Origin: an uncultured Candidatus Saccharibacteria bacterium
Lineage (GTDB): Bacteria; Patescibacteriota; Dojkabacteria; SC72
DNA: 54,263 nt
Direction of reading: 5' to 3'
Assembly: GCA_964585985.1 (NCBI GenBank)
Contig: CAZPFV010000001.1
Location: 29,199-83,461 of the forward strand
Both the position numbers and the translations under genes were made by a program. Positions 21,303 to 52,377 of this stretch are shown one piece after another. The notes under the pieces were generated by a model. The model was not told where the DNA came from. It did no database searches and saw only the letters and a list, made by a program, of their open reading frames with translations. Numbering within the stretch: position 1 is the first letter of the stretch; every line of letters starts with the position of its first letter.

Positions 21303-21383
21303 TCTAAACCTATATTATAATTTATATACTTATACCCAATAGCATAAAACAAATTTTATAATAGTGCAAGATGTATATTAAAT

Positions 21384-21392
21384 TGGTAAAAT
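21384..21392 (+). promoter_or_regulatory. extended -10 element (TGgTAAAAT) 6 nt upstream of the sortase ATG
   Basis: TGGTAAAAT at 21384-21392, then GCTCAT, then ATG at 21399. Confidence 0.4.
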
Positions 21393-21398
21393 GCTCAT

Positions 21399-22091
21399 AT
21401 GAAAAAACTTTTAAAAATTCTACTAACAACAATACTACTACTACTTGTAGTAGCTCCTGTCGCTTACTTAATAATATATCCTAATTACAATAAATTGGTT
21501 GCCCCAATTAAAAGATTTGATCTAGAAAGGAGTTCTCAAGAGATAACATTTCAGATATTTACACGATTAGCACCTACTAAAGATATGATTTTAGGCACCT
21601 CTATTCAAGATTCTAAATTCCAAAGTATTGAAGAGAGTGTTGATAATACTACCGTCCTTGATCAAAAGATACTTGAAGAGTTAAATACGAAAATTTTAAT
21701 AAACTCCATCGAGGTAGAGGGCGTAGTATATGAAGGATTAGATTCTCACACTATGAACAAAGGTTTCTGGCACTTCCCAGTATCTAGCCTACCTGGACAG
21801 AAGGGGAACAGTGTAATAATTGGGCATCGGTATGCAAAATTACCACCAAACAAAGATACTTTTTTTAATTTAGACAAGGTAAAAGTAGGGGATAGTGTAG
21901 AGGTTGTTCAAAGTAATAATCAATTCACATATATCGTTACCGATGTAAAAGTTGTTGATAAAAATGATATCTCAGTATTACAAGACTACTCTGATTATAG
22001 AATAACGTTAATAACCTGCTCTCCACTATGGACTTCTGAGCAAAGGTTAGTAATCATTGGTAAACTGGACAAATTGTACAAAAACACATAA
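21399..22091 (+). CDS. sortase family transpeptidase
   Basis: N-terminal TM anchor, catalytic His in SVIIGHRYA, Cys in RITLITCSP, and Arg in EQRLVIIGK. Confidence 0.85.
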   Translation: MKKLLKILLTTILLLLVVAPVAYLIIYPNYNKLVAPIKRFDLERSSQEITFQIFTRLAPTKDMILGTSIQDSKFQSIEESVDNTTVLDQKILEELNTKILINSIEVEGVVYEGLDSHTMNKGFWHFPVSSLPGQKGNSVIIGHRYAKLPPNKDTFFNLDKVKVGDSVEVVQSNNQFTYIVTDVKVVDKNDISVLQDYSDYRITLITCSPLWTSEQRLVIIGKLDKLYKNT

Positions 22092-28394: not shown

Positions 28395-29141
28395 ATGAAA
28401 TACAAAAAAGCTAGCCAACTCCTATTAATCTCTACAACGATCCTACTCTTTTTCTCAAGTATCCCCGTACTAAACACATTTGCATATGAAGGGAGTAGTG
28501 AAACAAAAAGAATACAGTGGGGAAATCTAAATACCTTTTCAGACAAAAAGGAATCCGAATCTTACTACATGGTAGACACTGGAGGGCAGTTAGGTAATGA
28601 TGTATACATATCTGATAATTATAAAATAATGGCTGGATTCGGTTTCTACTACAGTCTCATACCATTTAATTTTACAATTGATTCAGAATTAAATTTTAAC
28701 TTTCTCCAACTCAAGCCAAATGTTCCACAGACAGCATCAACAATATTAACAGTAACATCTGGAGCAGCCCATGGCTATGTTGTAACAGCCCAACAAAATC
28801 ATCAACTAGAAAGATTCGGAGAGCCTGGAGTATATATTTTAGATATAGTGGGAGATAATTCGGACATTACCCATCAGCAAGAAGGTATGTGGGAACTAAA
28901 TACTACTCACGGATTTGGATATACAATGGAAAATTTAGTAGGAACAGATGCTGTGTTTACAACAGGCTACAGACAGTTCGCAGATGCTTCAAATTTTGAA
29001 CCTCCCCAGATAATAATTGAAAACTCTGGAGTAACTAGAACCTCAAGTGCTAGAGTAAAGTATAAAATAAATATTGGAGCAATGCAGAAAGCGGGCTTTT
29101 ATACATCAAAAATCGCATATAACTGTACAGGAACATTCTAA
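28395..29141 (+). CDS. secreted beta-rich protein, putative surface-structure subunit (module 1, subunit)
   Basis: Signal peptide MKYKKASQLLLISTTILLFFSSIPVLNTFA. It shares with the 30150 gene the block ..TVTSGAAHGYVVT.. and a terminal strand AGFYTSKIAYNCTGTF ending at the C-terminal Phe. Confidence 0.8.
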   Translation: MKYKKASQLLLISTTILLFFSSIPVLNTFAYEGSSETKRIQWGNLNTFSDKKESESYYMVDTGGQLGNDVYISDNYKIMAGFGFYYSLIPFNFTIDSELNFNFLQLKPNVPQTASTILTVTSGAAHGYVVTAQQNHQLERFGEPGVYILDIVGDNSDITHQQEGMWELNTTHGFGYTMENLVGTDAVFTTGYRQFADASNFEPPQIIIENSGVTRTSSARVKYKINIGAMQKAGFYTSKIAYNCTGTF

Positions 29142-29157
29142 TTAACAATATTAAAAA

Positions 29158-30084
29158 ATGAAACTTAAAAATATTCTTTTAATTACATTTGGAATAATCT
29201 TGTTAGGAGTAAGAGCAACCTTCGCCCAACAAATTGACTTTAATATATACCCAACCATTATTGAAATTGAGAGTGAACCAGGCCAAACCATTAAATATCC
29301 TATTACTATCAAAGGAACTGGAGGAGGACAATACAACCTTAAAGTGTACGGCTTAGAAGTTACAGACAATCAGGGACACTTTGTCTCCAGTAAGCAAGAG
29401 TTTGATCAACTACAATGGATATCCTTTAAACCTGAAAATTTAGAATTTGAAAATTATGAACAGAGAGAAGCCAATCTTTTTGTGACCATACCCAATGAAG
29501 CTTCGCTAGGGGACTACTATTTTACAATCTCCCTTGAAAGAGAGTTTCCAGAGACAGAAGAAGGTCCTGTACTAAGTGGTGCTTTAGAAATACCTTTGCT
29601 AATTACACTCTCTAAAGACGGGTTTCCTAAATTAGAAGCAGAAATTAAAAAATTTAAAACAAAGTATATAGATGTATTTAATCCAATAACCTTTGACATT
29701 GAAGTTAAAAATGCGGGAGCAAGAAAGCTTAAATCATACGGCGAAGTAGAAATAACAAATATTATTTCAAAAGACACATACACAAAAGAATTAATACCTC
29801 AAAATGTATTAGCAGAATCAACAAGAATAGTTGTTGATGAACAAGGTTTTGTACAGGGGAATGATTATGTTTCTTGGATATCTCCTAACCTGATTGGCAT
29901 ATTTAAAGCAAAAGTAAACCTCTATGACAAATACCATCAAGAGGATAATGCAAGTATATTAGCCTCAACTGAAGAGCTCACATTCATCTATTTTGACTTC
30001 TTTCTTCTGCTAGGAATTCTCTTTGCCATTATTCTCATATCTCTGCTTATTTATAATAGAAAGAGAGAAGAGAAAGAGATTTGA
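29158..30084 (+). CDS. signal peptide + two beta-sandwich-like halves + C-terminal TM anchor (module 1, anchor/partner); DUF916/DUF3324-like architecture
   Basis: Paralogue of the 31231 gene (FNIYPTIIEIESEPGQT, QWISF, FDIEVKNAG..GEVEITN, NVLAESTR). C-terminal helix FFLLLGILFAIILISLLIY followed by NRKREEKEI. Confidence 0.8.
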   Translation: MKLKNILLITFGIILLGVRATFAQQIDFNIYPTIIEIESEPGQTIKYPITIKGTGGGQYNLKVYGLEVTDNQGHFVSSKQEFDQLQWISFKPENLEFENYEQREANLFVTIPNEASLGDYYFTISLEREFPETEEGPVLSGALEIPLLITLSKDGFPKLEAEIKKFKTKYIDVFNPITFDIEVKNAGARKLKSYGEVEITNIISKDTYTKELIPQNVLAESTRIVVDEQGFVQGNDYVSWISPNLIGIFKAKVNLYDKYHQEDNASILASTEELTFIYFDFFLLLGILFAIILISLLIYNRKREEKEI

Positions 30085-30149
30085 CATCAGAAGATATTTC
30101 ATATAAATTTAATTTAGTTAAATCAAAAAAATTATTTTATAACAAGAAA

Positions 30150-31220
30150 ATGAAAAGCAAAAAAATCTTTTCCCTTTTGACTGCCACCCTTTTAATCACA
30201 GTACTCGCTTTCTCTAATTACTTTTTTGTAGAAAAGGCATCAGCTGGATTCCTTACCTCCATCTCTGATACTTTAAGCAGAATAGAGCATTATGAAAAAG
30301 CAAACCACACAATTAAATTTGTTACTCCAACAGGAGTAGATCAAAGTACAGATACAATAGTGATAGCATTCGATGATACAGGTGATGCTTATGACCTAGC
30401 AGGGGTTACTTTCTCAGATATTGACCTCGCTATAGATAATGATGGAAATTGTGATGGACCTTGGACAGAGAAAACCTTAGGTGCAACAGCTGCAGCTAAT
30501 ACTTGGGGGGTGAATATTAATACAACAAATGATCAAATTACCTTTACTGCACCAAGTAATGCAACAACAGGTGAGATTGCCGCAGGAAGATGTGTACAGA
30601 TTGAAATAGGTACAAATGCTACCCACGGTGGGACAGGAATAAATCAAATAACGAACCCAAATTCAGGAACATATATCACCTCTATTTCTGGAACTTTTGG
30701 TGATACAGGCAGATTTGCAGTAGCAATACTTGCCTCAGATCAAATTGATATCACAGCACAGGTAGATCCAACATTAACTGTCATTATTAGTGCAACAACA
30801 TGCCCATTAGGAACCTTAACTGAAACCTATATAGAAACATGCAAATATAATGTAACTGTATCTACAAACGCTTCTAATGGCTATGTGTCTACCATAGTTG
30901 CAGATGGTTTACTAAGAAATACAACTGACGATATTAACAATGCCGTAGGATCACTTGTGAGAAGAGGATATGAAGAGTATGGAATAGCTACCTCAAAATC
31001 AGGACAACCAATTCCACAAAACATTGCATGTACTGACCATGATGGAGGAACTTCACAAGCTGCTACCGCACTTCTTACTACACCACAACAGTTTGCAAAT
31101 GCAACCGCACCAATCAGTTCAGACCTAACAACCCTTTGTCACCTAGCTTCCGTTACTGGTGCAACTCCTGCAGGTAGTTATGCTCAAGTTGCAACCATAG
31201 TTGTTACCGCTAATTTTTAA
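30150..31220 (+). CDS. secreted beta-rich protein, putative surface-structure subunit (module 2, subunit)
   Basis: ATG 30150 gives a signal peptide MKSKKIFSLLTATLLITVLAFS (the track's TTG 30081 is unlikely). It contains ..NVTVSTNASNGYVST.. and ends AGSYAQVATIVVTANF. Confidence 0.8.
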   Translation: MKSKKIFSLLTATLLITVLAFSNYFFVEKASAGFLTSISDTLSRIEHYEKANHTIKFVTPTGVDQSTDTIVIAFDDTGDAYDLAGVTFSDIDLAIDNDGNCDGPWTEKTLGATAAANTWGVNINTTNDQITFTAPSNATTGEIAAGRCVQIEIGTNATHGGTGINQITNPNSGTYITSISGTFGDTGRFAVAILASDQIDITAQVDPTLTVIISATTCPLGTLTETYIETCKYNVTVSTNASNGYVSTIVADGLLRNTTDDINNAVGSLVRRGYEEYGIATSKSGQPIPQNIACTDHDGGTSQAATALLTTPQQFANATAPISSDLTTLCHLASVTGATPAGSYAQVATIVVTANF

Positions 31221-31230
31221 TTTAGGATAA

Positions 31231-32274
31231 ATGAAAAACAAAACGCCCCTTTTCATACTTACATTAATTTTTGCAGTTGCAATATCTTTCATCCTGAGTC
31301 CTAAAGAACTACTTGCACAGGCACCCTTAAGCCTCCAAGTTTCACCACCTATTCTTGAAATTGAGATAAATCCAGGGGATACTTACAGTGACTTTTTGAA
31401 ATTTGAGAATTTAAGTACTACAGAAACCCTTACTCTCTACCCCCAGATTCTCTCCTTTAAGGCTAAGGGATTAGAGGGTGCACAGGAATTTATTACTGAT
31501 ACTCAGGAGACTACAAACTTCTCTCTTGCACAGTGGGTAAATATATCAACAGACATAATAGTAATAAAGCCACTAGAAAGAATCGTTTTACCTTTTACAA
31601 TTACAGTGCCTGTAGATGCAGAGCCTGGAGGTAGATATGCAGCAGTCCTACTTGGTAACCAGCCTGTGGTACAAGAGGAAGGAAGTAATGTAGCATTGGG
31701 GGCCCAAACGGGAACCATTATACTTGCTAAAGTTTCTGGTGATGTAACCGAAAAAGCTACTTTAGAGAGCTTTAAAACAGGTAAAGATTCATATCAATAT
31801 CCACCTGTAGATTTTGAAATTACAATACAAAACAGTGGTAATATACATGTTAGACCGCTCGGTAAGATAGAGATAAGTAATATGTTTGGTAAAAGTGTAG
31901 GAGAAATTGATGTAAACGTAGCAAAGGGGAATGTATTACCAGAATCAAGTAGACTGTTTACCCCATCTTGGGAAACAGAGAAGTTTACCATTGGTAAGTT
32001 TACTGCAAAGTTAGATTTAGAGTATGGAGATGAGGAGGTAAGCACTCTCTCAGATACAATCTCTTTCTGGGTATTACCTGTAAGAGAGATTGCAATAGGG
32101 GCGGGTGTTCTACTATTAATTATACTACTTTTTTTCGTGCTTATAAAAATGTACAACAGGATGGTTATCAAAAAAGCCTTAAAAATGAAGGAAGAAGAGA
32201 GACAAAATAGTGTAATAAACAATACTCCTGTAGGGGCTCCTCCAAGCGGTCAAAATCCACCTACTCAAATATAG
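31231..32274 (+). CDS. signal peptide + two beta-sandwich-like halves + C-terminal TM anchor (module 2, anchor/partner)
   Basis: LQVSPPILEIEINPGDT, QWVNI, FEITIQNSG..GKIEISN, NVLPESSR. TM helix IAIGAGVLLLIILLFFVLI followed by a basic then Pro-rich cytoplasmic tail. Confidence 0.8.
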   Translation: MKNKTPLFILTLIFAVAISFILSPKELLAQAPLSLQVSPPILEIEINPGDTYSDFLKFENLSTTETLTLYPQILSFKAKGLEGAQEFITDTQETTNFSLAQWVNISTDIIVIKPLERIVLPFTITVPVDAEPGGRYAAVLLGNQPVVQEEGSNVALGAQTGTIILAKVSGDVTEKATLESFKTGKDSYQYPPVDFEITIQNSGNIHVRPLGKIEISNMFGKSVGEIDVNVAKGNVLPESSRLFTPSWETEKFTIGKFTAKLDLEYGDEEVSTLSDTISFWVLPVREIAIGAGVLLLIILLFFVLIKMYNRMVIKKALKMKEEERQNSVINNTPVGAPPSGQNPPTQI

Positions 32275-32292: not shown

Positions 32293-32321
32293 TTGACATA
32301 TTTAGTGCTCCCCCATATACT
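32293..32321 (+). promoter_or_regulatory. sigma70-like promoter TTGACA-17 nt-TATACT for the giant fibre gene
   Basis: Consensus -35 TTGACA 32293-32298, 17-nt spacer, TATACT 32316-32321, in the 76-nt intergenic gap. Confidence 0.55.
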
Positions 32322-32350: not shown

Positions 32351-35300
32351 ATGCCCAAAATTAGAGTAGAAAACAAAAAAAAGATCAGTTTCAAACCGTT
32401 ACATTACTCAATCTTTTTAATTACTTTGGTATTCTCTTTTTGGGGAACATACTTTCTTAATGATTTTAACTGGTCAAAACTCTTAGAAGGGGATGTAATA
32501 AGAGACGACATCTTAGGTGTAACTGCACCCAATATGCTCTCATTCCAAGGTAGGTTAACTAACCGATCTGACACACCAATAACTACACCCACAAATGTAA
32601 CATTTAAGATATATAATGCGCCCGCTGGGGGCACAGAACTTTGGACAGGAAGCTGTACAATTACACCAGACCAAGATGGAATTTTTGATACGCTCTTAGG
32701 AGGTACATGTGGTAGCTCAATCCCGACATCTATTTTTAGTACATATGTCGATACATATTTAGGCATTACAGTCGGTACAGACTCAGAGATGATACCTCGC
32801 CAAAAGATAGTATCTAGTGCATATGCATTAAATGCAGATACACTAGATGGTTTTGATTCTTCACAAACACCTGGCATGAATAATGTTGTTGTCTTAGATC
32901 CCACAGGCAATCTTACATTTGGAACTACATCCCCAGTAATCTCTTCATCAGGCAATTTAATACTTTCTCCTTCGGGAAATGTAGGTATTAATATAAGTAA
33001 TCCAGCATCTTTACTCCATGTCAATGAAGGCAATGTCTTAATCACTGGGGCAGATAAAAAATTAATAGTAGAGCAAAGTAGAGGTTCAGATACAAATTTC
33101 ACCAGCCTTTGGGTTGGCACTACACTTGCTCTCTTTCAATACCCTGATGATATTAAGTTCGGTATTCAAGCAGCTTCTGGACAAAATGATTCAGGTGGGA
33201 GTGGTTATTCGTTAATGTCTTTTGGTAGTACTCGAAACACAATGTTTGGTGATATGTTAGCCTCCCAATCTGACCCAGGTCATAGGGTCACTATCAAAGG
33301 CTCTACTTCAAGTAATGGAAATGGTGCTTTAAGCGTATTGAATTCATCAGACAACAGTTTACTTTTTGTAAGAAATGACGGGAATGTTGGTATAGGAACA
33401 TCAACTCCATCAGCTGCACTTGATGTAGTAGGTGATATTAAGGCTTCTGGCACTATTAGAAATGTAACAGTACATGGAACAGTAGGAACTGCAGCAGCAA
33501 CGGCAGCAAAGGTCGTAAATATACCAAACTATACATTAACAACAGGTGATCTTCTTTCAATTACATTTACATTAGGAAATAGTGTGTCAGCAGCCACTTT
33601 AAATGTTAATTCAACAGGTCCTAACAATATTAGGTTAGGAAACACCAATGTAACAACTACTAATATGACTCTAGCTGCAGGCTCTACAGTACTGATGTAC
33701 TTTGATGGTACATATTTCCAAATAATGGGTTCACAAAGGGTATCAGATTCAAATACCTATGACAGAACATACTGGAATAACGCAATTACTGCCGGTACAG
33801 CCATATATGACTACAAATTAATAATGCAAGCCCCTGATGGTAAGTGGTATCCACTTACTTTAGAAGAGGGAACAAGCACTACTAAGACAGTATCAACTCA
33901 GCCTTTTACAATCAATTCACCTATACTTTACTATGCAACAACCACAAATGTAGCTGCTAATGGTACTTTCAGCAATGTATACAGTGAAATACCGATGGCA
34001 AATCTTAGATATACGGCAAATTCATCATCTTGGACGAATCAAAAACCCATATATCTTAAAGGAACAATAAATAGTAGCGGAAATTTTGTATTAGATAACA
34101 CAACATATGATAGTTTCATAACACAGACATTACCAACATCTGCAGATGGCTTTGTATACATCCTTTTAGGTCAAATGTATTCAACCACTGCAATGAGACT
34201 TTTCCAATATCATCCAATATATGAATACAAAGCAGGGAGAGTACAACCGTATGGAGCGGGATCAACAACATTTGCTGGGTTAACAGATACTCCTAATTCA
34301 TACTTTGGAAATGGCGGTTATCTAGTTAGAGTAAATGCTGGTGCAACTGGTTTAGAATTTGTTGAATCTTCCACCTTTATAGATACAAATGACTATGTAG
34401 ACTCTGTATCATTTAATTCTACAAATGGCGTATTAACCTTAGGTAGAACAGGAATACTACCAGACTTAACTACTAATTTAGATGGTAGATATCTACAATC
34501 CTTCACTGAAGCAGATACTCTGCAAACAGTTACTGACAGGGGTGCAACTACCACTATAGCGTCTACATTTAGTACTAGTATTAGGACTCCATTACTGATA
34601 GGGAACAATTCTTTAGGAATAAGGGCAGGGGCTAATTCAACAACTGCAATACAATTACAAAATGCGTCAGGTACAAGTATACTTAATGTAGATACAACAA
34701 ATAGTAGAGTGGGAATTGGCACTACCTCTCCAGTTACCAAACTACATATTGCTGATGATGGAGGTATCTTAGCCCAAGGTATTTATGAGAGTGGTTGGGA
34801 TGGAGGCTCTCTAGGGCAAGGAAGTAGACTAATGTGGATACCCAGTAAGAGTGCTTTTAGAGCTGGATATGTTTTTGGTACTCGATGGGATACTGCTAAT
34901 ATTGGTGATTTTTCAGTGGCAATGGGACATAGTACCACCGCCAGTGGACAGGCTTCCACCGCAATGGGAAATCAAACTTCCGCCAGTGGAGATAGTTCCA
35001 CAGCAATGGGGCTTGTAACCACCGCCAGTGGAAATTATTCTACAGCAATGGGAGAGGAGACCTTCGCTGGAGGAGAGAGTTCTGTAGCAATGGGGCTTGC
35101 TGCCAACACTAGTGGATATGCTTCCATAGCAATGGGAAATCAAACTTCCGCCAGTGGATATAGTTCCACAGCAATGGGATATGAAAGCACCGCCAGTGGA
35201 GATGCTTCCACAGCAATGGGGCGGAACACCACTGCTCAAGCCTATGCCTCTACAGTGATTGGTAGATACAATGTTATATCAGGCAATACTACTACTTGGA

Positions 35301-38299
35301 CCACTACCGATCCTATTTTTGTGATTGGGATAGGATCAGATCCCTCAAACAGAGCTAATGCTATGACAGTACTAAAAAATGGTAATGTGGGGATAGGGGC
35401 TACTAATCCTCAAGCTATGTTTACAGTTGGTGCTACATCTCAGTTTAGGGTAGATAGTAATGGAAATTTAACAAGAATAAATAATGTACCATATTCATGG
35501 CCTAGTAGTAACACTTCTGGAGTACTTGCAAATAACGGAAGTGGAACATTAACATGGTCCTCATTAGCAAGTTTAGGAGTAGTAACAGGAAGTGGTACAG
35601 GTGGTGGAACGGCAGGTCAGGTGACATGGTGGAATGGTACTTCTATGATAACAGGGAGTAATACTCTTTGGTGGAATGATTCGAGTGGTCGATTAGGAAT
35701 AGGTACTACTAACCCACAGGCATCTTTAGATATTGCAGGGGCAACTTCTACTATATCAAATGCTAGTGGGAATATAACGATTACTCCTGCAAGTAATTTA
35801 ATTGTAAGTCAGGGAAATGTAGGGATAGGTGTCTCTTCACCGACTAATAAATTACAGTTAGCTGCAGCTACAGCAACAACTGGGGGTATTGGATTTGGCA
35901 CAGATGTCATACTGTATCGTTCAGCTGCGAATATATTATCTCTTGGAACAGGTGATACTCTTAATTTAGTATCTGGAGCTCTTAGTATAGCTAGTACAAA
36001 TGTTATTACTTCTGGAAGACTAGTATTAGCAAATAATGGTACAGCTGCTGCTCCTTCTTTCTCATTTGCAAGTGATCCTGATAACGGAATGTATCGTGCA
36101 ACTACAGATGCCTTAGCCTTCTCAACAGCAGGAACAGAGAGAATGAGGATATTAGCAAATGGGAATGTGGGGATTGGTGTTTCTTCACCGACTAATAAAT
36201 TACAGTTAGCTGCAGCTACAACAACAACTGGGGGTATTGGATTTGGCACAGATGTAATACTGTATCGTTCAGCTGCGAATATATTATCTCTTGGAACAGG
36301 GGACACTCTTAATTTAGTATCCGGAGCTCTTAGTATAGCTAGTACAAATGTTATTACTTCCGGAAGACTAGTATTAGGAAATAATGGTACAGCTGCTGCC
36401 CCTTCTTTCTCATTCGCAAGTGATCCTGATAACGGAATGTATCGTGCAACTACAGATGCCTTAGCCTTCTCAACAGCCGCAACAGAGAGAATGAGGATAT
36501 TAGCTAATGGGAATATAAAGATGGGGGAGAATTTGGCTTTAGGAGGTGTACAGCCGACTACAAATGTTGCGCTTAGAGTAGGAGGGAACTCTGCTGTAAT
36601 CGCATTAATAGGCTCAAATAATCCTGCTCCTGCTTCAGGGGCAAATGAGATCTATTCACAAGGGATCGAAGTAGGAACTGGAGATGGAGCTTCAAAGACA
36701 GTCAATAATCTTGCAATAAAGAGTTGGTATGGAATCGGTTTTTGGAATACAGTTGCCGCTGGTGGTAGAACAGATGCTGCAACGATTTGGTTTGATGTGA
36801 GAACTGGCTCTGCATATGCTATGGGAAATTGGAATGCAAATCAGGGTGACTTGGCAGAGGTAATGACTAAGGATGCAAATGAAATTCTTCTCCCAGGTGA
36901 TATTGTTCAGATATCATCTCAACAAAGTAAAAATATTACTATTGCAGATGAATCATATTCTTCAAAAATTATAGGTGTAATTTCAACTGCTCCTGGATTT
37001 GCGATGTCTTCTGACAATGGGGATCCAACGAAAGGCATATTATCAGACGAAGACAATCCAGAGAAGGCATTTGTTGGATTAATAGGCAAAATCCCTGTAA
37101 AAGTTGTTTTAACAAACGGAAATATCAATCAAGGGGCTCCTGTTACAGCCTCTTCTTTACCAGGTTTTGGAATAAGAGCAACGAAAGAGGGAACTATTAT
37201 TGGAAAGGCTTTAGAGTCAACAGAAGAGTGGAATACACAGACTTGCTCTTCTGTGAGTAGTATTAATGTGATTGAATGGCCTGCAGATGATGGCTCTAAC
37301 CCAACTAAACCCTGCTTTAAGTTACCTGATGGTACTATTGTTGGAAAAATAATGGTCTTTGTTAATGTAAGTTGGTATAACCCCTCAGTAACATATACTA
37401 GTACAATAACAAATGATTCCTCTGATGAAAAACTTAAAAATATTACAGGAGAATATACAAGGGGACTAACAGAACTCTTAATGCTAAACCCTATCCTTTA
37501 CTCTTGGAATGAACTCTCCGGAATGGAAATGGAAAATACATACGCTGGCTTTAGTGCACAAAATGTACAACAAGCCATACCAGAAGCAGTAGGACTAGAT
37601 CAAAGAGGATACCTCTCTCTAAATGACAGACCTATACTAGCAGCAACAGTTAATGCAATAAAGGAACAACAAGAAATGATATCAACCCTTAATTCAAGTA
37701 TATCCACACTCTCTGGAACTACTCTTAATTCAACCTCCTCTATAGGGGAGAATATCCGCTTTAATGTAGAGAGTAAAACATTGCAATTTACCAATGACGG
37801 AGAGGTATGGTATGAGTTTGCAGAGAAACAATCAATGATGCTACTAACAAGTAGAGTAGAAAATCTTGAAACAAAAATAGCTAATATCGATACTACAAAC
37901 AGTATTAATACAGAAAACATACTTAAAGTGAAATTAAATAATGAGGGTAATATAGAATTACTAGGAGGAAATATATTAATGGAAGGAAATGGAACATTAA
38001 GCATAAAGAAACTAAAAATGGAAGAGGAATACAGTATAGGGAGTGCTAAATTAACTTCCAATCAATTAAGTATAACTATTAATACAAAAGGTGTTACAAA
38101 AGACTCCAAAGTATTTGTAAATCCAACCTCTGACACATACAACAAGGTGCTATATGTCACTGATATTAAAGAAGGTGAGTCATTCCGTGTAAATATTAAT
38201 GAGGCCATAGACAAAGATATTACCTTCGACTGGTTCATCATTGATAGTAAAAAATCTACAGAGGAAGTAATAGAAATAATTGAAGATGTAAAACCTTAG
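32351..38299 (+). CDS. 1982-aa membrane-anchored fibre/adhesin-like protein with tail-fibre-type modules and an S74-like intramolecular chaperone segment
   Basis: N-terminal TM IFLITLVFSFWGTYFL. Also present: LSFQGRLTN..LGITVG..IPRQKIVSSAYALNADTLDG, recurrent GNVGIG(T/V)xxP motifs, STAMGxxTxASGxx repeats, a 116-aa tandem duplication, and SSDEKLKNI..GFSAQNVQQAIPEAV..VNAIKEQQEMISTL. Confidence 0.85.
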   Translation: MPKIRVENKKKISFKPLHYSIFLITLVFSFWGTYFLNDFNWSKLLEGDVIRDDILGVTAPNMLSFQGRLTNRSDTPITTPTNVTFKIYNAPAGGTELWTGSCTITPDQDGIFDTLLGGTCGSSIPTSIFSTYVDTYLGITVGTDSEMIPRQKIVSSAYALNADTLDGFDSSQTPGMNNVVVLDPTGNLTFGTTSPVISSSGNLILSPSGNVGINISNPASLLHVNEGNVLITGADKKLIVEQSRGSDTNFTSLWVGTTLALFQYPDDIKFGIQAASGQNDSGGSGYSLMSFGSTRNTMFGDMLASQSDPGHRVTIKGSTSSNGNGALSVLNSSDNSLLFVRNDGNVGIGTSTPSAALDVVGDIKASGTIRNVTVHGTVGTAAATAAKVVNIPNYTLTTGDLLSITFTLGNSVSAATLNVNSTGPNNIRLGNTNVTTTNMTLAAGSTVLMYFDGTYFQIMGSQRVSDSNTYDRTYWNNAITAGTAIYDYKLIMQAPDGKWYPLTLEEGTSTTKTVSTQPFTINSPILYYATTTNVAANGTFSNVYSEIPMANLRYTANSSSWTNQKPIYLKGTINSSGNFVLDNTTYDSFITQTLPTSADGFVYILLGQMYSTTAMRLFQYHPIYEYKAGRVQPYGAGSTTFAGLTDTPNSYFGNGGYLVRVNAGATGLEFVESSTFIDTNDYVDSVSFNSTNGVLTLGRTGILPDLTTNLDGRYLQSFTEADTLQTVTDRGATTTIASTFSTSIRTPLLIGNNSLGIRAGANSTTAIQLQNASGTSILNVDTTNSRVGIGTTSPVTKLHIADDGGILAQGIYESGWDGGSLGQGSRLMWIPSKSAFRAGYVFGTRWDTANIGDFSVAMGHSTTASGQASTAMGNQTSASGDSSTAMGLVTTASGNYSTAMGEETFAGGESSVAMGLAANTSGYASIAMGNQTSASGYSSTAMGYESTASGDASTAMGRNTTAQAYASTVIGRYNVISGNTTTWTTTDPIFVIGIGSDPSNRANAMTVLKNGNVGIGATNPQAMFTVGATSQFRVDSNGNLTRINNVPYSWPSSNTSGVLANNGSGTLTWSSLASLGVVTGSGTGGGTAGQVTWWNGTSMITGSNTLWWNDSSGRLGIGTTNPQASLDIAGATSTISNASGNITITPASNLIVSQGNVGIGVSSPTNKLQLAAATATTGGIGFGTDVILYRSAANILSLGTGDTLNLVSGALSIASTNVITSGRLVLANNGTAAAPSFSFASDPDNGMYRATTDALAFSTAGTERMRILANGNVGIGVSSPTNKLQLAAATTTTGGIGFGTDVILYRSAANILSLGTGDTLNLVSGALSIASTNVITSGRLVLGNNGTAAAPSFSFASDPDNGMYRATTDALAFSTAATERMRILANGNIKMGENLALGGVQPTTNVALRVGGNSAVIALIGSNNPAPASGANEIYSQGIEVGTGDGASKTVNNLAIKSWYGIGFWNTVAAGGRTDAATIWFDVRTGSAYAMGNWNANQGDLAEVMTKDANEILLPGDIVQISSQQSKNITIADESYSSKIIGVISTAPGFAMSSDNGDPTKGILSDEDNPEKAFVGLIGKIPVKVVLTNGNINQGAPVTASSLPGFGIRATKEGTIIGKALESTEEWNTQTCSSVSSINVIEWPADDGSNPTKPCFKLPDGTIVGKIMVFVNVSWYNPSVTYTSTITNDSSDEKLKNITGEYTRGLTELLMLNPILYSWNELSGMEMENTYAGFSAQNVQQAIPEAVGLDQRGYLSLNDRPILAATVNAIKEQQEMISTLNSSISTLSGTTLNSTSSIGENIRFNVESKTLQFTNDGEVWYEFAEKQSMMLLTSRVENLETKIANIDTTNSINTENILKVKLNNEGNIELLGGNILMEGNGTLSIKKLKMEEEYSIGSAKLTSNQLSITINTKGVTKDSKVFVNPTSDTYNKVLYVTDIKEGESFRVNINEAIDKDITFDWFIIDSKKSTEEVIEIIEDVKP
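34913..35272 (+). repeat. about 8.5 tandem 42-nt (14-aa) repeats S(T/V/I)AMGxxTxASGxx, YadA-head/Hep_Hag-like
   Basis: SVAMGHSTTASGQA / STAMGNQTSASGDS / STAMGLVTTASGNY / STAMGEETFAGGES / SVAMGLAANTSGYA / SIAMGNQTSASGYS / STAMGYESTASGDA / STAMGRNTTAQAYA / STVIGRYN. Confidence 0.8.
35816..36511 (+). repeat. two tandem 348-nt (116-aa) copies, roughly 95% identical at DNA level, inside the fibre gene
   Basis: Copy 1 is 35816-36163 and copy 2 is 36164-36511 (NVGIGVSSPTNKLQLAAAT..ERMRILANG). I count about 15-17 mismatches by eye. Confidence 0.9.
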
Positions 38300-38300
38300 C

Positions 38301-38741
38301 CTATTCGGACAATGTATCCGTCTCTATATACACAGGAGCTATGTTCACGATTCTTTTCTCTTCTCTTCTGAAAATAATTGCCCTGTCCGAATATATAATC
38401 ATTATATCTCCCTCCTGTGCATCTTTATAAAAAATCTCATTTTCCTTTCTTAATTCAGAAATATCTACTAATTTGGCAACTGTGGGGTTCTCGCTCTCTG
38501 GCAATAATATAATCTCACTAAGTTCATCTAAAATATCCACTACCTCTCTCTGTTCAATATTACCCTGATTATCACCCTCCTTTTCAGTTAATCTGTTATA
38601 AACCAAATATCCTGCCCCAACACCAACTACGAAAATTATAATAATTAGGATTGTAAGCAGTAAAGATTTTACTTTACTATTATTAACAATAATCTCCTGT
38701 TTTTGATCTTGATTAATAATATTCAAATTACTTCTTATCAA
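38301..38741 (-). CDS. hypothetical single-pass membrane protein (146 aa)
   Basis: TM helix LLLTILIIIIFVVGVGAGYLVY. Convergent on the fibre gene, with 1 nt between the stops. Confidence 0.55.
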   Translation of the reverse strand: MIRSNLNIINQDQKQEIIVNNSKVKSLLLTILIIIIFVVGVGAGYLVYNRLTEKEGDNQGNIEQREVVDILDELSEIILLPESENPTVAKLVDISELRKENEIFYKDAQEGDIMIIYSDRAIIFRREEKRIVNIAPVYIETDTLSE

Positions 38742-45489: not shown

Positions 45490-46176
45490 CTAGAGACGAT
45501 TCTCAGTTTTTACTTTAAATACCTCTACGATATCTTCATACTCTGTGTATGGCTGAAAAGGTGAGTAAATGTCAATTTTCTCTCCACTGCCATCTGCAAT
45601 ATAGTACCCACTTACAGTTAATTCAATTTCCCAAACATCGGAATTATCTTCTCGTTTCGAGCTACTAAGCTCTACATTCTCTAGTCTTAACATATAGGGG
45701 GATACATTTTGAGCCTCATCTAAGAAAGATATAATGTTGTTGTACTCCCCTTTATACGCAATAGGTCCAGAAACAGACTCTAGTGCGTCAGAAGATGCCA
45801 GTTTTGATATTTCCAAACTTAATGATTTAGCAAGATTATCAAGGTAGTATACTAAGTCAGAGACTAACAAGATATTTGGGACTACTTTTTTAGCAGTAAG
45901 CACATCATCTCTAAGCGCATCTTCATCTATCCTCTTTAACTGCTCATCTAATTTTTCTAACTGTTTAATCTTTCCCTCAACAACTTTCATCTCTCCACGA
46001 TATTCAAAAGCTGATCTTACCATTGGTATAAAAACAGCAAATGACAGAATAGCAAATGCTGCCGCAGATGCGAAAGGGATAATCAAATCACCAAGCGTCA
46101 ATTTTGTTTTCTTACTCTTGGCTATATCCCTTAGCTCCTCACTCTTTTTTCTATCTGTTCTGTTTAATAATGCCAT
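45490..46176 (-). CDS. pilO: type IV pilus assembly protein PilO-like
   Basis: Third gene after pilM-pilN. One TM helix, a coiled-coil (EGKIKQLEKLDEQLKRIDE), then an alpha/beta domain (..YKGEYNNIISFLDEAQN..LRLENVEL..). Confidence 0.6.
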   Translation of the reverse strand: MALLNRTDRKKSEELRDIAKSKKTKLTLGDLIIPFASAAAFAILSFAVFIPMVRSAFEYRGEMKVVEGKIKQLEKLDEQLKRIDEDALRDDVLTAKKVVPNILLVSDLVYYLDNLAKSLSLEISKLASSDALESVSGPIAYKGEYNNIISFLDEAQNVSPYMLRLENVELSSSKREDNSDVWEIELTVSGYYIADGSGEKIDIYSPFQPYTEYEDIVEVFKVKTENRL

Positions 46177-46178
46177 TA

Positions 46179-46871
46179 TTAATTATTCTTAAAATTGTCT
46201 AAAATAAGGACTCCACTAAAAGTAAATTTCGCGCCTTCATCCGATTTATTAAAAGATTCTAATTTAATACTTTTTATATTTTCATTTACACCAAACAGAT
46301 ACCATAGCCGAGAAAGCTGTTCTAAATCAGGTGCATTTCCTGTTAACTCAAATCCTAAATTTTCAGATATCTCTATAGTAGAGAAATTGATACCTTGTAC
46401 CTTCCTACCTATTTCTCTAAAGTACTCAATTATTCTTTTATGTGAGAAACTGTCCTCTTCGACTTTTTGATAAAGACGAATCCTTGTTAAGATAATATTA
46501 TTCAAAGATATTGTCTCTGATCTATCATTAATACTTTTCTCTATTTTTCTCAAAGAGTTCTGTTTGCTAGCTAGTTGTGTTTTGGAAATAATGTTAAATC
46601 CTACAATAGCGATTGTGATGGCTACAAATATGATAATCGTGAGAATAGACCCAATATTTAAAGTATTCTTTTTTTTGATTGTACTCTTCTGCTCCTTAGT
46701 TAGTGATGGTATAAGGTTAACACCCTCTGATGCTTGCACTTTTTGAGGCTCAGCAAGGGTTGCGCCCATTGTTGTAGGAGTTGGGGGAGGTGCAATAGGC
46801 CCAGGTGCAGCAGCTGGTTGCTGTTGTGGAGGGATACTATTTACTTGTTGTGGTTGTTGTTGATTATTCAT
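46179..46871 (-). CDS. pilN: type IV pilus assembly protein PilN-like with Q/P-rich N-terminal extension
   Basis: The GVNLIPS motif is followed by TM helix ILTIIIFVAITIAIVGFNII. 8-nt overlap with pilM. The N-terminus MNNQQQPQQVNSIPPQQQPAAAPGPIAPPPTP is low complexity. Confidence 0.7.
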   Translation of the reverse strand: MNNQQQPQQVNSIPPQQQPAAAPGPIAPPPTPTTMGATLAEPQKVQASEGVNLIPSLTKEQKSTIKKKNTLNIGSILTIIIFVAITIAIVGFNIISKTQLASKQNSLRKIEKSINDRSETISLNNIILTRIRLYQKVEEDSFSHKRIIEYFREIGRKVQGINFSTIEISENLGFELTGNAPDLEQLSRLWYLFGVNENIKSIKLESFNKSDEGAKFTFSGVLILDNFKNN

Positions 46872-47892
46872 CTTTTAATGCTAAACCTATTGCTACAGAG
46901 TACGACGCCCCTGTTTTAGCTAGTATACTTTTAAATCTATTATCCACTGCTATATTATTCCATGGATTTGCAATTTGTGCACTAACCCCTAGTGATTTAG
47001 ATACATACTCCGTTAAGCCCGGAAGTAGTGCACCGTCACCATTTAGTAGATATTCCATAGGAGGAGCACTCAAAGTTCTATTTTTATAAAATTCTACTCC
47101 TCGTCTTACTTCAATGATAATAGAGTCAATAATGGGTAGTAGGGCACCGTAAATTTTCCCCTCTACTACTGATGAGACTAGTCCGTAGCTCCTTTTAAAC
47201 TGTTCTGCTCTGTTATAATCAAAATTAAATTTGTTAACTACTGCCTGTGTTAGCGCATCAGAGCCTATCGGTATACTTTGCGAGAATACCAATGCTCCAT
47301 TTGTCATAATACTCATATCTGTACTGTTTGCACCAAAGTCTAACATAACTGCATCTTTTTTCTTCATTGATCTAAACATGGCTCTTCCCATTGCAACAGA
47401 CTCTGTTTCAATCGCAATTAAATCTAGACTTGCGAAATTAGCGACATTCATATAGATCTCTATTATCTTTTTAGGTGCTGCAACAAGTAATACCCTTGGA
47501 GCATTTCTCTCCTGATTAAACCCTATAACAACATAGCTCATTTGCACATCATCAATTGGTACTGGTATATACTGTTTTGCTTCATAATATACTGCCTGTT
47601 TGAGTTCCTCTTGTTTCACTCCAGGAAATTCTAAAAATCTCGTAAATACTGAGAACTCGGGTAGAGCCATCACAACATTTACATTCTTCATTTTAGTGTT
47701 GGCGTAGAGAGTCTTGAGTGCATCCCCCAATTTTTTTTGATCCTGTCTTTCCTCACTGTTGATAACTCCTTTTGGAGTTAATTGCATACCCAAATTTGTC
47801 AATTGTGGGGTATTAAGAATGTTCTTTAGTTCGACAGCTTTCACTGTATGTGTTCCGAAATCTATGCCTACATGATCTGGCAATTTCGCCAT
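46864..47892 (-). CDS. pilM: type IV pilus assembly ATPase-fold protein PilM
   Basis: Actin-like fold motifs VGIDFGTHTVKAVEL, MLDFGANSTDMSI and LNGDGALLPGL. Confidence 0.88.
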   Translation of the reverse strand: MAKLPDHVGIDFGTHTVKAVELKNILNTPQLTNLGMQLTPKGVINSEERQDQKKLGDALKTLYANTKMKNVNVVMALPEFSVFTRFLEFPGVKQEELKQAVYYEAKQYIPVPIDDVQMSYVVIGFNQERNAPRVLLVAAPKKIIEIYMNVANFASLDLIAIETESVAMGRAMFRSMKKKDAVMLDFGANSTDMSIMTNGALVFSQSIPIGSDALTQAVVNKFNFDYNRAEQFKRSYGLVSSVVEGKIYGALLPIIDSIIIEVRRGVEFYKNRTLSAPPMEYLLNGDGALLPGLTEYVSKSLGVSAQIANPWNNIAVDNRFKSILAKTGASYSVAIGLALKDE

Positions 47893-47965
47893 ACTTACTG
47901 GACAGTTAATTTATGACTACTAATATGATAGCAGAAATGATTCAATCTTTGAAATTAGTTAAATA

Positions 47966-50900
47966 CTATGGCTTGATTCCAGCCTCAGCAGAGTGCACTA
48001 CAGTAGTTTTAGCAAAAAATTGCTCTACTAGATACCCATACTTAGGATGTAAATCAATAGCTACAACAGGATATACTAATCTCTCTTCTAGTCTAAGATA
48101 CCTATTTACTACAATGCTTGTACTACTTCCTTTAGATATTAACCCTCCATTAATATATACACCATCTACAATATTTGGAGGTGGGACATTATCAGCTCCA
48201 ACTGTAATTACCCCATCTGCAACTATGAAAGCATTTACTTTCTCATATTCGAAAACATTTGGTCTTTCATGGGTTCCTGCATTTATGACTACACTGCCAC
48301 TTACAACAAAAATACAGCCATTTTGATTACTTAAGGTCGTTGCATTTTGGCTATGTATTGGAGGACTAATTGATAGGTTTCCATCAACAAATATTACAGC
48401 TTTCTTGTCACAACGCAAATTACTATTAACAGTAAGATTTCCTAAGCGATGGAAAGCACAGTAAGTTCTACTGCATGTATTTAAATTTGCTAAAGAGGAG
48501 GAGGTCAAGGTTATCTCCTGTAAAGCATCCCCTAAATTGGTTATCTGATATTCATACTTTTCTTTTAGATCTTTGTACAATGATTCTGTTTGAGAAATTA
48601 CTTGATTTCCATGTCCCGCTAGAGAGTATGAATTTGTCGCTGGAGCATTTACCAAAGCATTACTTCTGTTTGCAAGCATTTCACTCGTTAATCCTCCATT
48701 TTTGCGGAGCATACCATCACTTGCTGATAAAGGATAGGGAGGAAGGGTGCCTTGCCATAATGAGTCGTTTGCTAATGTTAATTCTGCAAAGGAAGGGTTT
48801 CCACTAGAGTAGAGTAAGCCTCCACCAGTTAAGAATCTGTCTGAGAGATTTTCACCCACAGAGAAAGTGGTCATATTACCTGCATAATCAAATACATGTA
48901 AATATATGTTGATGGCTCCTTGAGTATTTTGTCCTACATCTATACTTACAGTTCCACTATTTGTTGAGGAGTTCAGGTGTGCTGGCTGAACTTGAAATGA
49001 CCAATCCCCATTTAGCTTTCCTACTAAATCACCGCTACCACTACTTGGCTCTGGTTGAAAAATACCGTCTCCATTCCTTAATGAAATCGTATGAGAGGGA
49101 GTACCAACTAGATCAATATCTATCTCCTTCCTATTTATATCCGTAGCAGAGGAGTATACATTTCCTACAATTGCATAAAGATTTCTATCATCTCCCGCTT
49201 CCCATTCTACAATTATTTTATTTTCCTGAATTTCTGTGTTTACATTAATTGTTGGACTGACTGAGTCTATTACCCAATTCTTTCCTGAGTCTGTCCAATT
49301 TCTAGCATATGTTTGGTTTTGTGACGGCTTATATCTTAAAGTATTAGCATCTGGCCAGTAGTAAGACAGGTCTGTATAGCCATGTCTTAAGAAGTTGGAC
49401 TGCCAATATCCTCCGTAATTTATTCCTGGATAGTTGTCGTACGGGGTAAAACTAAATTTGTCTAAACCAAGAAGGAAAATATCGTAATTTCCGTCTTGCA
49501 CCTGTCCACCGTAACGAGTTCCAGCACTACTTGAGAATTGCAAACTAAATTCCATATTTAACTCATTATTATTACCTGCTGATACAGAAGGTGGGGCTAG
49601 TACTGACACTCGTACCATTTGTTGGTTATTAGGACTCGCGATATCAAATACTTTGTAGAACGCTGTTGTTGACAAGGTCGCTACTGTCCAATATGAAGTT
49701 GCCCCAGCGTAAGAGGGTACATACGGGATCCAATCAGTTCCGTTTCTTCTTAGCATGAATCCCCAACTATCACGTGCAGAGGATTGAGGAGTAGCACTCG
49801 TTGATAGATTTACTGGAGTGTTGGGCACTCCAGTGTAGTGACTCTCTCTAAACCATACAAACATGCCTTCAATATCGTTTGCGCCATCATTGTCGGTATA
49901 GGTGGCTTTCATCTTTATCGGGAGAAGGGGATCATTTAAGCTTCCAATTCTAGAGTTAGTACTACTACTCCCTGTGTGAGTATGGCTTACAAAATCATAA
50001 CCGTTAGCGGTTGGAGCTGGGTCGTTCACAACTATACTTAATTTGGTTGTAGGCTGGGGTGAAGATGGTTCATAGCAGTCATCTTCACTTTCTAGGGGTT
50101 TCACACCACAATCATTTGTACACTCTCTAAAATCATTTAGAATTAAATTAGCATTCCCTGTATTTGTTAATGGAGATGGACATGATTTCAGGCAAGAACT
50201 ACAGTAGCAACTTCTGTATGTTAAATCACAAAGGGTTGTCCTGTTTGGAGTAGAAGAGCTTCCTCTTCTACAACTGGCTGTACTTGAGTCTGCGACTTTT
50301 CCTTGGTAAACACCTGATTGGTACTGGGCAGATTCGAAATATCCTAGGGTTGAGCATAGTGGAGGAGTACAGGCATTGCAGTAACAATTTATAGAGGTAC
50401 TATTTCTCTTTGGGTTACAATTATTCGTTGAGACACCATTTGTCCTATCACAATACTCTGTTTGAGTAGAATGGAAATCAGAGGTTTTAGGGTACAGTGG
50501 GTCTGTAGGGATACTATTTGTTGTTGATGTTCCACTAGGACAAACTGGAGTAGGAGGGGTACAGTTAATACAACGACACCAACAGTCTTCACTGGAGGTC
50601 CCACAACAGGAATTAGTATGTGTTCTAGATCCACAAGCATATGAGTCTGTTGAATTGGTGTCTCCATTAGAACAACTTCCCCAACCAGCAGAGCAAGTAG
50701 AATTACAAGAACCACCACTACAACCGCAGGAACAAGAGGTATACGAATATGTCCCACCCCAACAACATCCTGAGCCTTGATACATCTTACCGGGACCACA
50801 CAACGCGGATGATGCATAACATGTACCATTCTCCAAGCAATCACTGCTACACGCACTTCTACAACCAGTAGGCCAACATCCACCTGGTGTAAGTTCGCAA

Positions 50901-52320: not shown

Positions 52321-52377
52321 AATCGATTAGTAGTTATATACACATAATATTAATTGAACCGTAATTTTATATCACTT

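Follow-up and report, generated by a model that had tools for sequence, protein, structure and literature searches.

Our analysis concerns one gene on a 54,263-nucleotide (nt) stretch of DNA, here called the window, from contig CAZPFV010000001.1 of an uncultured Candidatus Saccharibacteria bacterium (assembly GCA_964585985.1; GTDB lineage Dojkabacteria, SC72). This gene (32351..38299, + strand) encodes what is probably a trimeric, phage-fibre-like surface fibre of a member of the candidate phyla radiation (CPR; Patescibacteria). It is the last gene of a Pam-type pilus-like cluster, and a stack of modules at the C-terminus of its product would assemble the trimer and then be cut off. Here, we will refer to this product as the fibre. 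Its C-terminal quarter runs, in order, through a gp36-like segment, a G2-type chaperone, an S74 chaperone, a linker and a K1-lyase_C-like cap, and two of the three stacked modules are, from their family matches, probably self-cleaving. An earlier reading of the DNA (the original prediction) had described a genuine S74 chaperone, a real extension beyond it and a non-phage protein, all of which stand; it had missed the G2 domain, the identity of the C-terminal domain (CTD) and the Pam-pilus-like operon.

The C-terminal stack of chaperones and cap

The S74 module occupies amino acids (aa) 1691 to ~1795 (37421..37735; here and below, coordinates are on the + strand unless stated) and was identified by Pfam, by its catalytic dyad and with a profile of its family. 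Peptidase_S74 (PF13884) matches aa 1691-1747 with 29.5 bits against a gathering score of 22, covering model positions 1-57 of 58. The dyad, Ser1691 (37421-37423) and Lys1696 (37436-37438), stands in an S-D-x-x-x-K motif whose Ser, Asp and Lys are invariant in an alignment of 17 homologous chaperone regions and which aligns with the SDxRxK of solved chaperones. In the PDB, the family profile found a phage long-tail-fibre tip (6f45, 6e-15), 8jov, the MYRF ICA domain (7dc3, 6e-9) and the GA-1 neck appendage chaperone (3gud, 0.009). Judged by these matches the S74 domain is genuine and its Ser/Lys dyad intact, with a predicted cut site at Ser1690|Ser1691. The original prediction had placed it at ~37418-37700, and both the profile match and the dyad that it depended on were found there. 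In one homologue (P0004), a partial second copy of the S74 core follows the first ('...GLIVQDVEKIYPEV...AIKEQQ...'), which suggests an internal duplication within its chaperone module.

Immediately upstream, aa 1500-1689 (36848..37417) had been treated as part of the fibre proper; this region reads instead as a phi29 gp12/peptidase G2-like autochaperone with a conserved D-x-A-E site (Asp1500, 36848-36850; Glu1503, 36857-36859). The segment from aa ~1490 to 1689 recurs in many CTD-bearing proteins that have no S74. PF11962 (Peptidase_G2, 'IMC autoproteolytic cleavage domain') matches the fibre with 21.3-22.2 bits (E=1-2e-4), the match beginning at GDLAE, and it matches 9 of the 25 G2 family members at E<=0.01 (best 8.8e-11). 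Both catalytic residues are invariant in the family alignment, and D-x-[AGS]-E is found in 29/29 family members. Searching the PDB with the G2 family profile returned the gp12 autochaperone (3gqh, 3e-7; 6qz9; 3suc) and Dpo31 D4 (28nb, 2.5e-5). Residue 1 of the fragment released from gp12 (DFAEY) lines up with the invariant Asp; in 3suc, a construct that cannot be cleaved, the sequence is DFAQY. The predicted cut site is Gly1499|Asp1500. The G2-like domain is not C-terminal in the fibre, 293 residues following its end. A released fragment larger than S74 alone, as had been proposed, would amount to ~292 aa from the Ser-Asp site and would grow to ~483 aa if the G2 module cuts.

The G2-like domain also contains an insertion of ~35 aa (37241-37315, aa ~1631-1655) carrying Cys1632 and Cys1655. 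Its motif, W-P-x-D-D-G-x-N-x-x-K-P-C-[FY]-x-L-P-D-G-T, is common to five homologues and absent from the rest, and the insertion may be a disulfide-bonded surface loop.

Counted from Ser1691 onwards, the fibre has 292 residues, compared with ~90-130 in homologues with a terminal S74, and the sequence predicted beyond the chaperone is present as 187 residues after the end of S74 (~aa 1795). It comprises a poorly conserved linker of short strand and helix segments (aa ~1796-1849, 37736..37897), a beta-sandwich CTD ending in DITFDWFII (aa ~1850-1969, 37898..38257), and a short acidic tail followed by the stop codon (aa 1970-1982, 38258..38299). In most homologues, 2-5 residues come after the corresponding FDWWIV strand. 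The linker is matched by two relatives only and has low pLDDT, the confidence measure of AlphaFold2 (AF2), at the start of the AF2 model. The same modelling, from a 36-sequence alignment, gives the CTD as a six-strand beta-sandwich with a core pLDDT of ~97. The original prediction of a coiled-coil-like stretch plus a small beta domain was therefore right about the beta domain, while in place of a coiled coil there are short helical segments only.

Three lines of evidence bear on what this domain is. Comparison of the model with the PDB by Foldseek returned tailspike C-terminal domains (9k4a, 7eea, 7w1c/d and 2vbm; root mean square deviation 2.7 A over 72 columns), the best folds being those of K64-1 S2-4, cyanophage Pam1, Klebsiella K1 lyase and Sf6. 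Against BFVD there were 23 matches at E<=1e-3, many annotated 'K1 capsule-specific polysaccharide lyase C-terminal domain', and PF24146 (K1-lyase_C) matches over model positions 3-69 of 70 (E=5e-5, 24.0 bits; 19-26 bits in relatives). A PDB sequence search with the single C-terminal 333 aa gave nothing useful. Because PDB folds, BFVD and PF24146 agree, the 'extra' residues are a recognisable tailspike cap rather than an orphan domain. What had been taken for a fragment of unknown kind has as its core, by sequence and predicted fold, a K1-lyase_C-like tailspike cap. In the K1 lyase, the trimer is locked by a dome made of these sandwiches (PMC8822698), and tailspike CTDs are required for trimerisation (PMC11652154).

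An exhaustive search with aa 1795-1982 found at least 807 cluster representatives that carry the CTD at E<=1e-3. The CTD core, with the motif DI.FDWWIV, lies nearly always at the extreme C-terminus, in host proteins of 80-6179 aa. To describe what precedes it, we ran local profiles for four modules on all fetched proteins and counted CTD-bearing representatives of at least 400 aa (n=66). Upstream of the CTD, 26 had G2 only, 25 S74 only, 2 both and 13 neither, so that a module of the self-cleaving-chaperone type precedes the CTD in 53/66 (80%) of these long members. An internal chaperone is on this count normal in the family, and MYRF likewise has an internal S74; the premise of the original prediction that S74 always forms the extreme C-terminus does not hold. 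The usual arrangement in the family is 'chaperone then CTD', and members with two chaperones are rare. Besides the fibre, only P0104 has both modules, in reversed order, and SDxxxK was looked for in P0104 and not found.

The catalytic motif is kept in nearly all of the modules upstream of the CTD, as S-D-x-x-x-K in 26 of 27 S74 modules and as D-x-[AGS]-E in every G2 module. This retention argues that the CTD is usually cut off. Fibres that share the N-terminal module described below have swapped their chaperones, P0034 (the orthologue from L005, a 724-kb Dojkabacteria contig) having S74 plus CTD, and P0036 and P0037 having G2 plus CTD; G2 and S74 behave as interchangeable cassettes. Three types of C-terminal auto-chaperone are known from tailspikes, one that is retained (P22-type) and two that are cleaved (gp12-type and K1F-type; PMC3357383). 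By its domain matches, the fibre has all three, one behind the other.

The taxonomic range of the CTD has been sampled only, since a profile search in a word-indexed database gave 14 matches with little taxonomy and a genome scan with a narrow alignment gave 10 loci. The closest genomes with the CTD are Candidatus Dojkabacteria and Saccharibacteria metagenome-assembled genomes (MAGs), and named homologues come from Kaiserbacteria, Shapirobacteria and the 'Patescibacteria group'. Three CTD-encoding contigs (L008, L009 and L010) are assigned to 'Gammaproteobacteria' and 'Nanoarchaeia' MAGs, which could reflect mis-binning or real spread beyond CPR; on L009, a G2-like domain and the CTD lie ~56 aa apart with no S74 between them. 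Nine giant CTD-bearing proteins of 1687-6179 aa (P0046, P0047, P0071, P0090, P0104, P0108, P0145, P0153 and P0168) start with a helix-turn-helix-like 'LSISEAAxxLGVSxxTLRRWEKxG', so that an N-terminus of apparently cytoplasmic, DNA-binding type is oddly combined with the C-terminus of a surface fibre.

Shaft, head repeats and N-terminal half

The reading frame of the fibre is open over its whole predicted length and encodes 1982 aa; an identical protein is encoded on the ENA metagenome contig ERZ15185900 NODE_141. Directly upstream of the G2-like domain lies a phage T4 gp36-like tail-fibre segment (aa ~1429-1499, 36635..36847), identified by PF03903 with E=1.2e-7 and 32.3 bits against a gathering score of 26. 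It is the predicted mature tip in the event of cleavage at the G2 site.

Before it comes a beta-helix-type shaft with GN(V/L)GIGxxxPxxxL loops and a tandem 116-aa duplication (35381..36520). Three stretches of the shaft align to the Bdellovibrio fibre Bd2133 (PDB 8ond, E=1.4e-8) on GNxGxGxxxPxxxL loops, and the shaft matches the PHROG tail fibre phrog_9942. All five of the G(N/R)(V/L)GIG junction motifs listed in the original prediction were located (aa 344, 1011, 1113, 1155 and 1271), together with an additional GNVGIN at aa 209. The duplicated 116-aa unit that had also been reported is visible in the DNA as a tandem spacing of 348 nt, with 300 nt at 96% identity (35813-36112 versus 36161-36460). 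Such identity between the copies (35813-36460) points to a very recent duplication or possibly to an assembly artefact; the sole other assembly with the exact fibre protein has 2.3x coverage.

YadA-head (Hep_Hag) repeats of 14 residues fill aa ~843-1032 (34877..35446), as seen in Pfam, in PDB sequence matches and in DNA repeats. A search with the YadA_head model, which had been proposed as a check on the Hep_Hag-like repeats, scored 67.4 bits against a gathering score of 25, in four stretches around aa 850-1030. PDB sequence matches to this region include BpaC, a Hep_Hag protein and EibD, and seven repeat units of 42 nt lie at 34870-35262. The ~600 aa that precede the repeats (aa 236-842, 33056..34876) are beta-rich and have no Pfam match at E up to 10. 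The two GNVGI[GN] loops at aa 209 and 344 belong to this beta-rich part, the one at aa 209 falling in the range of the preceding module. Few homologues of aa 236-842 were found among related proteins, and none of its second half among 149 of them; it could be a lineage-specific binding or enzymatic part of the fibre.

The N-terminal module, or N-module (aa 38-235, 32462..33055), carries a [YF]QGxLT motif, here LSFQGRL at aa 63, and is 56% conserved in the L005 orthologue. Its homologues come from CPR and a few non-CPR bacteria and are placed directly after signal peptides. The core (aa ~61-155) is modelled by AF2 as an Ig-like beta-sandwich with pLDDT >90. The original prediction had named this part a YQGRL-type tail-fibre N-terminal module. 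The motif is there, but the N-module has no Pfam match and no PHROG support, and because its model has only weak, generic viral fold matches the tail-fibre label is not established and was dropped. Upstream of the N-module, a Lys/Arg-rich N-terminus and a hydrophobic helix (32351..32461) form a candidate signal anchor or uncleaved signal peptide. The single N-terminal transmembrane (TM) helix of the original prediction corresponds to the one hydrophobic segment in the whole protein (aa ~18-37, by hydropathy), and the same feature is found in the orthologues P0034, P0036, P0037 and P0190.

The Pam-pilus-like cluster and its chromosomal setting

Four open reading frames (ORFs) on the same strand precede the fibre, which begins 77 nt past the last of them. 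Two are Pam-type pilin-like. Gene 1 (28395..29141, 248 aa) has a signal peptide by eye and by hydropathy and matches CPR_Pam_pilin_C (NF058581) with E=8.8e-8 and 32 bits over positions 6-148 of 148. Gene 2 (30081..31220, 379 aa) also has a signal peptide and matches the same model with E=2.6e-9, and its orthologue on L005 does so with E=2.1e-12 and 47 bits over positions 2-148 of 148. The other two are chaperone-like paralogues with 24-27% identity to one another. In chaperone-like gene 1 (29158..30084, 308 aa), hydropathy shows a signal peptide and, at aa 272-302, a TM helix, and chaperone-like gene 2 (31231..32274, 347 aa) has a signal peptide and a C-terminal TM helix. This is the layout, a signal peptide plus a C-terminal TM helix, described for the chaperones PamC and PamD (bioRxiv 10.64898/2026.03.03.709456). 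PDB sequence searches with the pilin-like and chaperone-like ORFs gave nothing useful, and no PamR- or PamE-like genes were recognised in the 28395-32274 cluster.

The same order, pilin, chaperone, pilin, chaperone, fibre and small TM protein, recurs on L005. Identities of the four upstream genes to their counterparts there range from 46 to 60%, at 60% for pilin-like gene 1 (in the same position), 46% for chaperone-like gene 1, 56% for pilin-like gene 2 and 54% for chaperone-like gene 2. The small TM protein is encoded convergently in the window (38301..38741, - strand; 146 aa, single TM), its stop codon abutting that of the fibre, and it is found beside the fibre 3' end in L002-L005. A 'tail fibre-like protein' has been reported to co-localise consistently with pam operons across CPR, the protein itself not having been analysed (bioRxiv 10.64898/2026.03.03.709456). 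The fibre is most likely a member of this class. Between the pilus-like genes and the fibre there is no terminator-like site. The best promoter-like sequence of the region, TTGACA-17-TATACT (32293..32321, 11/12 matches), lies 30 nt upstream of the fibre ATG and is a lead only, as promoter-like sites (against shuffled controls) and terminator-like sites in the region were not above chance.

The setting is a cellular, Dojkabacteria-like CPR chromosome. Housekeeping genes lie on both sides of the fibre, the window carrying ThrRS, PheRS, HisRS, PBP1, MutS, PPDK, trigger factor, ClpP, KsgA, Dus, ClpB, RNase III, NusB, ribosomal proteins and PilM, and GC content is uniform at ~35% with no shift. No phage structural, lysis or integration genes were found near the fibre, in line with the original prediction that it is not part of a prophage, and its unclassified neighbours have no PHROG matches.

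Elsewhere in the window, 45490-54234 (- strand) is a type IV pilus-related block, with PilM at 46864-47892 and two PilN/O-like single-TM ORFs downstream of it. Upstream of PilM are three large ORFs of 1020, 435 and 618 aa with no family matches, the first of which has a Cys-rich N-terminus. A Big-domain surface protein, hydrophobic in a segment at either terminus, is encoded at 20385-21302 (- strand). Beside it (window 20385-22091), the ORF at 21399-22091 (+ strand) shows, by eye only, a sortase-like 'TLITC' motif.

A model for fibre maturation and its alternatives

The results above establish the domain identities, the retained catalytic residues, the order of chaperone and CTD across the family, the cellular setting and the conserved gene order. 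That the chains trimerise, sit anchored in the membrane, fold in a set order and are cleaved, and that the fibre helps to attach the cell to a host, we infer. The chain would be exported by Sec and kept in the membrane by its N-terminal helix. Its last ~480 residues would not be a working tip but a stack of the G2 and S74 modules, the linker and the K1-lyase_C-like cap, which would fold and trimerise first and put the three chains in register. The shaft, with its YadA-head repeats and its beta-helix with Bd2133-type loops, would then fold back towards the membrane. Self-cleavage at Gly1499|Asp1500, at Ser1690|Ser1691 or at both would finally discard up to 483 residues, leaving as the exposed distal end the gp36-like segment, or the G2 domain if S74 alone cuts. 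Separated from the rest of the fibre by one or two self-cleaving modules, the CTD would therefore probably be discarded.

Several observations weigh against this model. The fibre scores just under the Pfam gathering scores for PF11962 (25) and PF24146 (27), the Pam-pilin matches of 32-47 bits are under the NCBIfam cutoff of 55, and neither chaperone-like ORF has a family match. The N-terminal helix could be a cleaved signal peptide instead, and a shared binding partner could explain the very strong conservation of the CTD just as well. The triple beta-helix or prism that normally precedes an S74 chaperone is embraced by it, whereas the S74 of the fibre directly follows the G2 domain. Xiang et al. 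(2009) reportedly found ATP to be involved in gp12 chaperone processing; as there is no ATP outside the cell, the G2 module may not cut in the fibre. An ATP-binding site reported for gp12 is also referred to in the Dpo31 paper (PMC13317679).

This last point bears on an alternative that we regard as possible but on the doubtful side, in which only one module cuts, most likely S74, a trimeric piece of S74, linker and CTD (292 aa) is released and the G2-like domain stays as the mature distal, possibly receptor-binding tip. The ATP-binding site reported for gp12 argues against extracellular cleavage by G2, while S74 self-cleavage works without cofactors in the cellular fibre Bd3182, and S74 is the only one of the three stacked modules in the fibre to score above its Pfam threshold. 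The lineage-specific, disulfide-type loop of the G2-like domain (Cys1632/Cys1655, in five homologues) is also such as a surface-exposed tip might have. However, the G2-site Asp and Glu are invariant throughout the 29 members, many of which lack any S74, and G2 and S74 are near-exclusive alternatives, which suggests that their roles are equivalent.

The remaining alternatives concern the CTD and the origin of the gene. That the CTD is a functional end-piece rather than an assembly cap, staying on the fibre or acting after release, seems to us improbable; it could then be a lectin-like binder of a common glycan, tether the fibre to the envelope or pilus of its own cell, or be a sorting tag that is removed on arrival. 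It stands at the very C-terminal end in at least 807 clusters whose architectures differ widely, a pattern typical of sorting or anchoring domains, CBM3b carbohydrate-binding modules are among its weak Foldseek matches, and 13 of the 66 long proteins have the CTD without a chaperone module. Yet the best sequence and fold matches of the CTD are trimer-locking tailspike domains, its most conserved part is the buried terminal strand (DITFDWWIV) and not the loops, and a catalytically intact self-cleaving module lies upstream in 80% of long members. Nor does the CTD match Pam pilin models; the more specific proposal of a Pam-pilin-like donor-strand acceptor that mounts the fibre on the pilus was rejected, there being no NCBIfam Pam match and the fold being K1-lyase_C-like. 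If the gene belonged to a prophage or phage remnant and encoded its tail fibre or tailspike, this would account for the phage relatives of nearly every recognisable module (PHROG tail fibre, T4 gp36, gp12-type, S74 and K1-lyase_C), but this reading is effectively refuted. The gene is surrounded by those of KsgA, Dus, ClpB, RNase III, trigger factor and aminoacyl-tRNA synthetases and by pilus genes, its unclassified neighbours have no PHROG matches, and there is no GC shift; the fibre has the same chromosomal position in several CPR genomes, and its N-terminal membrane helix is not a virion-attachment domain. The prophage reading was rejected on this gene content, the PHROG scans, composition and conserved synteny.

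Among experimentally studied systems, the closest analogue of the self-removing fibre proposed here is the Bdellovibrio MAT family, specifically its S74 subgroup (Bd3182, with Bd2133 for the shaft). The MAT fibre Bd3182 self-cleaves at S782 and has a terminal S74 (PMC10769870). Both are long, cellular, non-viral fibres, MAT belonging to a bacterium that lives on other bacteria, and both have an export signal, a candidate one in the fibre, followed directly by a conserved beta-rich N-domain (~130 aa in MAT), a likeness of layout. They also share the shaft capping loops GNxGxGxxxPxxxL (a motif given in PMC10769870) and an S74 with SDxxxK. The MAT S74 is terminal, however, whereas that of the fibre is preceded by a G2-type chaperone and followed by a linker and a CTD that is not among the described MAT tips. 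A hydrophobic-helix anchor in a probably single-membrane CPR cell takes the place of a signal peptide in a Gram-negative cell, and the fibre has in addition YadA-head repeats and a pilus-like gene cluster.

The individual modules have their own relatives. For phi29 gp12 (peptidase G2) and Dpo31 D4, the likeness lies in the D-x-A-E site, which aligns with residue 1 (Asp692) of the released autochaperone. Both gp12-type and K1F-type domains are cleaved auto-chaperones, and the gp12-type is trimeric and absent from the mature spike (PMC3357383, PMC13317679). Unlike that of gp12, the G2 module of the fibre is not terminal, would act extracellularly without ATP, and has the Cys insertion of ~35 aa. 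K1F endosialidase, T5 pb1 and GA-1 gp12 resemble the fibre in their S74 Pfam match, a Ser and Lys five residues apart, a GFxAQ motif and a terminal helix. Their chaperone, though, forms the last ~100-155 residues after a triple beta-helix or prism, whereas the fibre has 187 more residues after it and G2 before it. MYRF offers the precedent for an internal S74/ICA domain with further sequence downstream; its cleavage splits the trimer from a membrane-bound remainder (PMC8326128, PMC3742440). In MYRF the membrane helix is downstream and the N-terminal part is released, whereas in the fibre the helix is N-terminal and the C-terminal part would be released, and the domains downstream of S74 are unrelated.

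Tailspike CTDs (K1 lyase, Sf6, Pam1 and K64-1 S2-4) share PF24146 over 67/70 positions and the fold with the CTD of the fibre. Theirs, however, directly follows a catalytic beta-helix and is retained, while the family to which the fibre CTD belongs is spread over hundreds of cellular protein families. The trimeric autotransporter adhesins YadA, BpaC and EibD have the same YadA-head/Hep_Hag repeats with a 14-residue period, but the fibre lacks their C-terminal YadA beta-barrel, would be anchored at the opposite end and belongs to an organism that probably has no outer membrane. We rejected a trimeric autotransporter adhesin on the Pfam results, which gave head repeats only and no YadA_anchor match at E<=1.

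Cellular S74 fibres (MAT), an internal S74 (MYRF) and a 'tail fibre-like' gene near pam operons are already known. In the literature searched, we found no paper in which CPR are treated together with S74 or intramolecular chaperones and none that mentions Peptidase_G2 as well as Peptidase_S74, and the tandem of G2 and S74 in one protein was not found. Nor did that literature hold an account of a 'chaperone then K1-lyase_C-like CTD' cassette in CPR surface proteins or of the anatomy of pam-associated fibres.

CPR bacteria spend their lives attached to other microbes, and little is known of the means by which they recognise their hosts and hold on to them. At the locus described here, Pam pilus genes, a recent discovery themselves, are linked to a phage-like fibre of previously unanalysed architecture, and hundreds of large CPR surface proteins have a common C-terminal cassette of a self-cleaving chaperone and then a tailspike-type cap. 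Their C-terminal ...DITFDWWIV provides a simple signature for candidate host-interaction fibres in CPR genomes, and Asp1500/Glu1503 and Ser1691/Lys1696 are concrete, mutable residues for fibre maturation outside the cell. A protein with G2 and S74 in tandem would lend itself well to asking whether the two chaperone types duplicate each other, act one after the other or have separate tasks. More speculatively, and in our view rather unlikely as a whole, 'G2 or S74 then CTD' may be a general self-removing pro-domain with which CPR build giant trimeric fibres outside the cell without ATP or helper chaperones, and the two-step maturation here may free a soluble CTD trimer. If so, the released trimer could mask the adhesive tip until assembly or host contact, or act as a shed glycan binder, and the place of the fibre gene in the Pam pilus cluster would make fibre and pilus one host-capture apparatus.

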